IMG/VR virus record: IMGVR_UViG_2645727905_000011
DNA length: 9,608 nt
DNA from: a virus
Taxonomy: Duplodnaviria; Heunggongvirae; Uroviricota; Caudoviricetes
Reading direction: 5' to 3' (one strand)
Below the pieces are notes generated by a model. That model did not search any database. It saw only the letters and a list, made by a program, of their open reading frames with translations, and was not told the DNA's origin. Below are positions 4,111 through 4,281 of the stretch, piece by piece (position 1 is the stretch's first letter; each line of letters opens with the position of its first letter). Made by a program: the position numbers and the translations under genes.

Positions 4111-4281
4111 ATGTCACTTGCAACCACCGTGAAGGAGAGCAAGTTACAGAGACGCATGTACACGCAGCAGGCGTTAATGTATCGCCAGAAGGGAGATCGT
4201 GAAGGTGTTCGCGTCTTTTTAAATGAGGCAAAGACCGAAGTATTAAATCAGCGTTATTTCCTTGGTCCATGTCCATTCTGA
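4111..4281 (+). CDS. Small hypothetical protein (56 aa), first gene of the rightward operon
   Basis: Not in the ORF track (below its size cutoff). ATG preceded by a strong SD (AAGGAGA, 6 nt spacer). Translation MSLATTVKESKLQRRMYTQQALMYRQKGDREGVRVFLNEAKTEVLNQRYFLGPCPF. Ends 8 nt before the annealase gene. Confidence 0.4.
   Translation: MSLATTVKESKLQRRMYTQQALMYRQKGDREGVRVFLNEAKTEVLNQRYFLGPCPF

Follow-up and report, generated by a model that had tools for sequence, protein, structure and literature searches.

A 56-residue gene of the uncharacterised HkaM family opens the annealase-SSB recombination module of a defective Escherichia coli prophage

The 9,608-nucleotide (nt) stretch of DNA in the IMG/VR record IMGVR_UViG_2645727905_000011, a Caudoviricetes sequence referred to here as the window, carries at positions 4111 to 4281 of its plus strand an open reading frame (ORF) for a basic protein of 56 amino acids (computed isoelectric point, pI, 9.9). 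This frame, which we call ORF B, adds one more member to a family already known but uncharacterised (HkaM, or PHROG 1723) and is the first gene of a phage recombination module, in which it lies directly before the gene for a single-strand annealing protein (annealase). That ORF B is coding and that it belongs to the HkaM family are, taken together, virtually certain. Residues 1-56 match phrog_1723 with E=1.2e-33, HkaM of phage HK620 (NP_112046) matches the same profile with E=3.6e-33, and an hhalign comparison of the ORF B family alignment with HkaM returns a probability of 95%. The gene itself is already annotated in public records: RefSeq lists it, in an E. coli chromosome with 100% identity, as the hypothetical protein WP_162774372.1, it is named gene 29 in the Sf6 record and gp42 in that of HK97, and the records of HK022 and the mEp phages have hypothetical genes annotated across it. 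The initial annotation of the window had described an unannotated 56-residue ORF with a strong Shine-Dalgarno (SD) sequence. The ORF, its ATG and the GAAGGAG motif are as described there, and it is the word unannotated that these records contradict. The same annotation took ORF B for a genuine small gene of unknown function, a view upheld both by the selection acting on the frame and by the match to phrog_1723; PHROG 1723 and HkaM are themselves uncharacterised.

ORF B begins with the ATG at 4111, ends with the TGA at 4279-4281, and is the third cistron of the plus-strand block, behind kil and a second small frame, ORF A (4032-4202, plus strand). Its SD sequence, GAAGGAG at 4098-4104 on the plus strand, stands 6 nt ahead of the ATG and is embedded in codons E23-G24-D25 of ORF A. 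A purine-rich, SD-like motif is found 5-9 nt before ORF B in all 24 of the 24 distinct upstream sequences compared, which come from several genera. At the other end, the stop codon lies 8 nt ahead of the ATG (4290) of a Rad52_Rad22-family annealase gene, in agreement with the initial annotation, which had the ORF ending just before that gene. The annealase SD, GAGGTG at 4280-4285 on the plus strand, and the stop codon of ORF B overlap, an arrangement that, to judge by the sequence, is typical of translational coupling, and ORF B is probably coupled to the annealase gene in this way.

Evidence for the ORF B protein comes from polymorphism within the stretch that it shares with ORF A. The shared stretch is 92 nt long, ORF B is shifted to +1 with respect to the frame of ORF A, and silent changes in one frame can be scored against their effect on the other. 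The 250-nt segment spanning both frames was taken from 174 loci and yielded 109 distinct sequences; 88 distinct haplotypes, which fall into two common allele groups, entered the polymorphism test, and each polymorphic site was classified within its group. Within the overlap, 18 of 19 events leave the ORF B protein unchanged, where about 20% synonymous would be expected (p=3e-12). The same 19 events read in ORF A comprise 17 nonsynonymous changes, one premature stop and a single synonymous change. The part of ORF B outside the overlap adds 22 synonymous and 4 nonsynonymous events, bringing the whole frame to 40 synonymous out of 45, with 5 nonsynonymous, where about 21% synonymous is expected (binomial p=3e-22). 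In the part of ORF A that lies outside the overlap the excess is modest (12 of 36 synonymous, against 16% expected; p=0.007). The ORF B protein is identical in 40 of 41 window-type DNA haplotypes, while ORF A varies. ORF B is therefore the constrained frame within the overlap and is under strong purifying selection. The window's own allele carries the change A39E (codon 39, 4225-4227), the sole nonsynonymous event of the window-type allele group in the part of ORF B outside the overlap; the other window-type haplotypes have Ala at this position and Sf6-type alleles have Leu, and Glu39 recurs in one IMG/VR contig (L023) only.

These counts bear directly on the proposal that the real gene is the 4032-4202 frame and that ORF B is a chance open frame within it, the competing frame that the initial annotation had itself singled out. 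ORF A has credentials of its own: its start overlaps the kil stop as ATGA, it matches phrog_2123 (E=2e-39), it is annotated in several phages, and its N-terminal 22 amino acids are kept in phages without ORF B (Kapi1, SEN22). The polymorphisms of the overlap, however, alter ORF A in 17 of 19 cases and truncate it in one more, and 18 of the 19 are silent in ORF B, so that it is ORF A that is unconstrained here. Two loci have ORF A cut to 7 or 36 amino acids beside an intact ORF B. ORF B also occurs without any ORF A, namely in Salmonella phage ABTNLsp11242, Erwinia phage 59, HK620 and prophages of Serratia, Yersinia and Pantoea, and in an Enterobacter phage ORF B is 57% identical while the tail of ORF A is unrelated. 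The ORF B frame itself is kept from Escherichia to Serratia, Yersinia, Pantoea and Erwinia. An ORF-A-only locus thus has next to no probability in our estimate, and the data are compatible with both frames being real, with only the N-terminal peptide of ORF A mattering.

The junction with the annealase gene raises a second alternative, in which ORF B would be mainly a cis-acting leader that brings ribosomes to the annealase gene by translational coupling and its peptide would be unimportant. The overlap of the ORF B stop with the annealase SD and the short gap in most loci (7-10 nt) are what such a leader would look like. The 40 synonymous against 5 nonsynonymous events, on the other hand, show that it is the amino-acid sequence that is strongly conserved; six positions, the two C-terminal residues among them, stay invariant even at about 25-35% identity, and AlphaFold2 gives ORF B a confident fold. 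We therefore judge a leader with a dispensable peptide very improbable. Coupling may coexist with a function of the ORF B protein, and does not account for the amino-acid constraints. A scan of Rfam over positions 3700-4500 on both strands gave no match at E<=1, so a known RNA element does not explain the conservation either. When 3300-4400 was scanned for promoters and terminators, a single weak promoter-like site emerged (at 4038-4065, with 9 of 12 matches), which is at the level of shuffled sequence. A weak terminator-like hairpin lies within ORF B at 4198-4213, with a T-run to 4223 (CGTGAAGGTGTTCGCG TCTTTTTAAA), and does not rise above shuffled sequence; the HK620 record annotates a terminator, tL2D, within hkaM at a comparable position. 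An antisense ORF at 4109-4375 was rejected because the variable sites, which are the wobble positions of ORF B, are its codon position 2.

ORF A encodes an acidic protein, also of 56 amino acids (pI 4.75), and is named gene 30 in Sf6 and gp42.1 in HK97. Its N-terminal segment of about 22 amino acids (MSFTDNWSDEEFIRQMKELIG) is conserved, and residues 27-56 form the unconstrained tail that overlaps ORF B. The same start recurs with unrelated tails in Kapi1 and SEN22 (35 amino acids) and in Enterobacter phage MII_001. It weakly resembles the start of P22 Arf, MQHEFSDEEFIALI (phrog_2445, E=0.043; hhalign probability 33% over 18 amino acids). The simplest reading of ORF A is an acidic, Arf-like peptide made by ATGA coupling to kil, with a free-running tail, and its conserved N-terminal peptide is probably also translated, coupled to the kil stop. 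The locus as a whole is most simply read as two nested small genes, with ORF B read from its own SD inside the tail of ORF A.

Natural fusions of the two frames invite another interpretation, namely that programmed +1 frameshifting joins ORF A and ORF B into a product of about 82 amino acids and that the fusions display the true protein. In HK97, gp42.1 consists of ORF A residues 1-43 followed by ORF B from about residue 20 to its C-terminus, a fusion (L007, 1422-1673) that arises by two 1-nt insertions 7 nt apart. A second type, due to a 1-nt deletion, is found in one prophage lineage present in at least 24 E. coli assemblies at NCBI (L346, 2501-2749, GCA_040214815.1), at nearly the same spot as the HK97 insertions (ORF B codons 17-19), and about nine further junctions occur among database proteins. 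These junctions, however, fall at scattered points between ORF B residue 1 and about residue 26, as expected for random indels; gene callers prefer the longer fused ORF, which creates an ascertainment bias; and just one of the 263 fetched loci is fused. ORF B moreover starts from a conserved SD and ATG of its own and is found in loci that lack ORF A. No slippery site was identified, and in an AlphaFold2 model of a natural fusion the ORF A part is of low confidence (predicted local distance difference test, pLDDT, 55-69; predicted template modelling score 0.59). Programmed frameshifting is hence scarcely credible, and we read the fusions as tolerated frameshift alleles or errors. A Rosetta-stone argument from the fusions to a joint function of the two proteins was set aside for related reasons, as it is weakened by the gene-caller bias and by an ORF A helix that is not confidently packed in the fusion model.

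The family to which ORF B belongs is one of temperate phages of Enterobacterales. A profile search of 5.8e9 clustered proteins recovered 97 relatives, and an exhaustive HMMER search of 1.84e9 representatives at 50% identity recovered 29; the relatives that carry names are from Escherichia, Salmonella, Enterobacter, Serratia, Yersinia, Pantoea, Erwinia and Buttiauxella. Searches of ORF B, ORF A and HkaM against Pfam, NCBIfam and PADLOC gave sub-threshold hits only (FmdE, E=0.087; a tail-domain, E=0.077) and none in PADLOC, and a sequence-profile search of the PDB gave no match at E<=1. HkaM and the other members of PHROG 1723 (Sf6 gene 29, HK97 gp42 and the HK022 homologue) share with ORF B the size class, the Pro-Phe end and the position directly before the annealase gene, usually after kil. 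The window protein differs from HkaM in belonging to a 56-residue subfamily with the tail GPCPF, in being 36% identical to it, and in preceding a Rad52-type annealase where HkaM precedes Sak4. HkaM was first annotated as 'arf' by position, and a 2018 study of Sak4 treated it as an orphan of unknown function (PMC5928155). For the label 'recombinase' that PHROG attaches to phrog_1723 we found no experimental basis, and literature searches on HkaM, HK97 gp42 and mimics of SSB tails (SSB, single-stranded DNA-binding protein) turned up no functional study of the family.

An AlphaFold2 model built on a 60-sequence alignment (pLDDT 92.7) predicts for the basic ORF B protein a hairpin of two helices that ends in a short tail: helices at residues 7-27 and 30-49 with a turn between them, followed by residues 50-56, where pLDDT is lower (about 75) and the model has no secondary structure. 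This tail, YFLGPCPF (4255-4278, plus strand), is conserved in the same alignment. Six residues are invariant in the 60 aligned sequences (A21, R25, E43, L51, P55 and F56), all of them present in the window protein, and F50 and G52 are nearly invariant. Every full-length family member seen, the most distant included, terminates in Pro-Phe-COOH, and ORF B fits the family C-terminal pattern [FY][FLI]L-x(1-6)-P-F-COOH. Tails in the HkaM subfamily are of the [DE][DE][LIM]PF type (SELPF, GDELPF, GDDLPF, GDEMPF), and those of the 56-residue subfamily are GPCPF, GEPPF and GEQPF. A motif for binding the beta clamp, which the general consensus would place in NQRYFL, was considered and rejected because its Gln is not conserved across the family.

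The genomic neighbourhood of ORF B is dominated by the annealase gene. Among the 256 loci with a recognisable gene downstream of ORF B, many of which are close relatives, the next gene encodes an annealase in 255, and the exception has an HNH gene inserted first; the ORF B stop lies 7-10 nt from the annealase start in most of them. Three fold families are represented among these annealases (Rad52_Rad22, ERF and Sak4/AAA_24). Wherever a locus reaches far enough, an SSB-like gene follows the annealase gene in the architectures that we tabulated, and these genes are of three types: PF00436 SSB, the HK620 type (phrog_743) and the HK97 gp40 type (phrog_44), the last of which ends in DDSIPF in most loci. 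The upstream neighbour varies between kil with ORF A, kil alone, cIII and unrelated genes, kil being the one found in most E. coli loci. The most distant member of the family (P0113) has a small ORF upstream, itself preceded by cIII, and an ERF gene and then an SSB gene downstream. With the upstream neighbour varying and the annealase constant, the linkage of ORF B to the annealase gene is therefore tighter than its linkage to kil. A strict co-occurrence of ORF B with a phage SSB was also considered and rejected, as it holds in one direction only: Arf > Erf > SSB-like modules without ORF B exist. The region of ORF A and ORF B has a sequence match in 1112 of 5426 complete E. coli genomes, or about one in five.

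This setting leads us to hypothesize that the ORF B protein would be an accessory factor of the annealase-SSB recombination system and the positional counterpart of Arf of phage P22, a role that we consider somewhat better than even. P22 Arf aids Erf-dependent recombination and is not essential (PMC12315714). Like ORF B, Arf (47 amino acids, phrog_2445) is the product of a small gene between kil and an erf-type annealase gene; the order in P22 is kil - arf - erf, that in the window kil - A - B - annealase, and Arf and the A+B pair are alternative occupants of one slot before the same ERF-type annealase. The proteins themselves differ. A search at E<=1 gave no match between ORF B and phrog_2445; Arf, with a pI of 4.05, is very acidic and ORF B basic; Arf lacks the Pro-Phe end; and a weak Arf resemblance in the locus (FSDEEFI / WSDEEFI) belongs to ORF A, not ORF B.

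Several observations weigh against an accessory role in recombination. First, sak4 and ssb of HK620 alone give the full oligo-recombineering activity of the whole module, HkaM being unneeded in that assay (PMC5928155). Second, the frameshifted or fused alleles persist in HK97 and in the lineage of at least 24 E. coli assemblies, and loss of the intact ORF B protein is therefore tolerated in those cases. Third, six loci hold Arf > Erf > SSB-like > Abc2 modules without ORF B, so that annealase-SSB function does not strictly require it. Fourth, gene order in operons transcribed from the early-left promoter (pL) is historically conserved and many of the 256 loci are close relatives, and adjacency therefore overstates the independent support. 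Finally, Foldseek searches of the AlphaFold2 model against PDB and BFVD returned generic helical hairpins only, none at E<=0.001.

Some of these same facts would fit a real ORF B without any role in recombination: an accessory gene of the pL operon, an anti-defence gene or one whose product partners Kil, with its place beside the annealase gene a matter of inherited order. Such a protein might, for example, hide the annealase or SSB from host systems able to sense either. Small host-takeover genes abound in early-left operons, kil lies directly upstream of ORF B in most E. coli loci, and both the dispensability of HkaM for Sak4-SSB recombineering and the survival of frameshifted or fused alleles in HK97 and one E. 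coli prophage lineage speak in its favour. Yet the linkage to the annealase gene outlasts that to kil and ORF A, with cIII followed by ORF B in Serratia and other neighbours in Erwinia and Salmonella; the most distant member still stands before an ERF-SSB pair; the linkage survives exchange of the annealase among three fold families; and PADLOC gives no match. We regard a role outside recombination as unlikely on this evidence, if a serious contender, and continue with ORF B as a putative accessory factor of the annealase-SSB module.

How such a factor might act is suggested by the tail. The free C-terminal tip of SSB proteins, DDDIPF in the case of E. coli, serves to recruit their partners, and annealases and host SSB-interacting enzymes dock there. 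In HK620 the last six residues of SSB, NDYPPF, are required for binding and stimulation of Sak4 (PMC5928155), and the C-terminal domain of Red-beta interacts with E. coli SSB (PMC6393309). ORF B resembles these SSB ends in carrying a free C-terminal Pro-Phe after a short unstructured segment, and the HkaM subfamily does so further in having acidic residues and Leu, Ile or Met before the tip (ELPF, DDLPF, DEMPF). With other products of the module docking on tips of this kind, a free Pro-Phe end encoded by its first gene suggests an adaptor or decoy: the free tip of ORF B would work in protein-protein contacts much as the SSB C-terminal tip does. As an adaptor, ORF B would help load the annealase onto DNA. 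As a decoy, it would fill the SSB-tip pockets of host ExoI, RecJ, RecQ, RecO and PriA, and SSB-dependent host enzymes would be kept off phage recombination intermediates.

That the HkaM family is a phage-encoded SSB-tip mimic of either kind is a tentative proposal, and on present evidence a rather doubtful one. The likeness is at the level of the motif only, SSB being an OB-fold protein with a long acidic linker and ORF B a basic helical hairpin. Two further points tell against it: the window tail YFLGPCPF has no acidic residue before its tip (GPCPF), unlike the canonical SSB tip, and the tail could instead pack on its own hairpin. In the window SSB (5462-5968; C-terminal codons at about 5903-5965), DDDIPF is internal, 15 residues from the C-terminus, and the C-terminal extension beyond it holds a second LPF; the internal DDDIPF is also found in 54+ related loci. 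Other SSB types in modules containing ORF B have free ends of the form ...DSIPF, ...DSDIPF and ...NDYPPF. The annealases of the three fold families that follow ORF B have a similar extreme C-terminus (CVQVMNIRVNELKQAA, DVYNIRRDELEGAAA, DVYDIRKGELEQVA, NNVHQIKENAA; 4932-4997 in the window), a similarity that suggests a common short interaction or degradation motif.

The remainder of the window accounts for the apparent position of ORF B. From 3883 onwards the plus strand represents the recombination region, of early-left (pL-type) kind, of a prophage that is lambdoid or P22-like. Its first cistron is kil (3883-4035), encoding a host cell-division inhibitor of 50 amino acids (Pfam Lambda_Kil, E=4e-19; kil in RefSeq). 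Behind ORF A and ORF B follow, all on the plus strand, the gene for the Rad52/Rad22-type, Erf-like single-strand annealing protein (4290-4997; Pfam Rad52_Rad22, E=1e-25; phrog_1097, E=2e-129), that for an HNH endonuclease (4998-5465; Pfam HNH_3, E=1e-13), the phage ssb (5462-5968; Pfam SSB, E=2e-36; ssb in RefSeq) and, at the end of the module, the gene for the Abc2 anti-RecBCD protein (5982-6275; Pfam Anti-RecBCD_p2, E=5e-63), with xis and int farther on. The HNH endonuclease has a C-terminal helix-turn-helix, and its stop and the start of ssb overlap. This gene is present in only a minority of modules that are otherwise identical, as expected for a mobile, homing-type insertion. Between the module and xis/int lies a gene (6988-7713) whose product, a lysozyme-inhibitor protein of the LprI family, has an apparent signal peptide; the gene is probably a lysogenic-conversion 'moron'.

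On the other side, a truncated pseudogene of an O-like replication initiator (3538-3882, minus strand; phrog_345, E=3e-57; a pseudogene without its N-terminus in RefSeq) adjoins the kil start, and a DnaB-like pseudogene also lies on the minus strand. Positions 1-3882 are a scrambled nin/replication region in which these two pseudogenes are the last before kil. Its minus-strand genes at 1-1362 are Q, ninH, rusA and a ninG-like gene that is truncated; a plus-strand block (1353-3439) consists of a ydfO fragment and genes encoding a PerC-family regulator, a Dam-type methyltransferase, a LexA-like protein and another, divergent RusA. Over its full length the window matches a defective prophage beside mdtA in E. 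coli Z1323HEC0423 with 100% identity, and similarity to intact phages (mEpX2, mEp235, HK75 and Sf6) starts at about position 3879. In intact relatives (mEpX2, Sf6, HK97 and HK620) the order is pL - N - ... - cIII - kil - (ORF A) - ORF B - annealase. A rearrangement has thus joined the O-like pseudogene to the kil start, and N, cIII, the repressor region and pL are gone; the prophage, lacking its immunity region, is presumably defective.

ORF B appears promoter-proximal in the window because this rearrangement removed N, cIII, the repressor region and pL. The initial annotation had put it at the head of the operon, in the slot of small promoter-proximal regulators such as N. It is in fact the third cistron of the plus-strand block here and a mid-operon gene, behind N, cIII and kil, in intact relatives, and N is a separate gene several cistrons upstream in mEpX2, HK97 and HK620. 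ORF B shares with lambda N a small size, a basic character and a place in the early-left operon, but N adjoins pL/nutL in intact relatives, and ORF B has no Pfam or PHROG similarity to it.

The gene being already on record, what is new here is the frame-resolved selection test, the link to HkaM, the invariant Pro-Phe tip and the association of ORF B with annealase and SSB genes. Together these place HkaM, an orphan in 2018, in a family of at least eight Enterobacterales genera that travels with annealase-SSB modules irrespective of the annealase fold. The ORF A/ORF B locus is also a clean case of two nested small genes, which automatic annotation has handled inconsistently, and the PHROG-derived label 'recombinase' is misleading for a family present in phages as well studied as HK620, Sf6, HK022 and HK97. 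For work on phage recombination and recombineering, ORF B is a concrete candidate cofactor. Should the SSB-tip reading be true, it would explain the buried DDDIPF in many SSBs of modules with ORF B, the window's included, and ORF B would be a new class of small regulator of the SSB hub and a compact natural tool to perturb that interaction hub.

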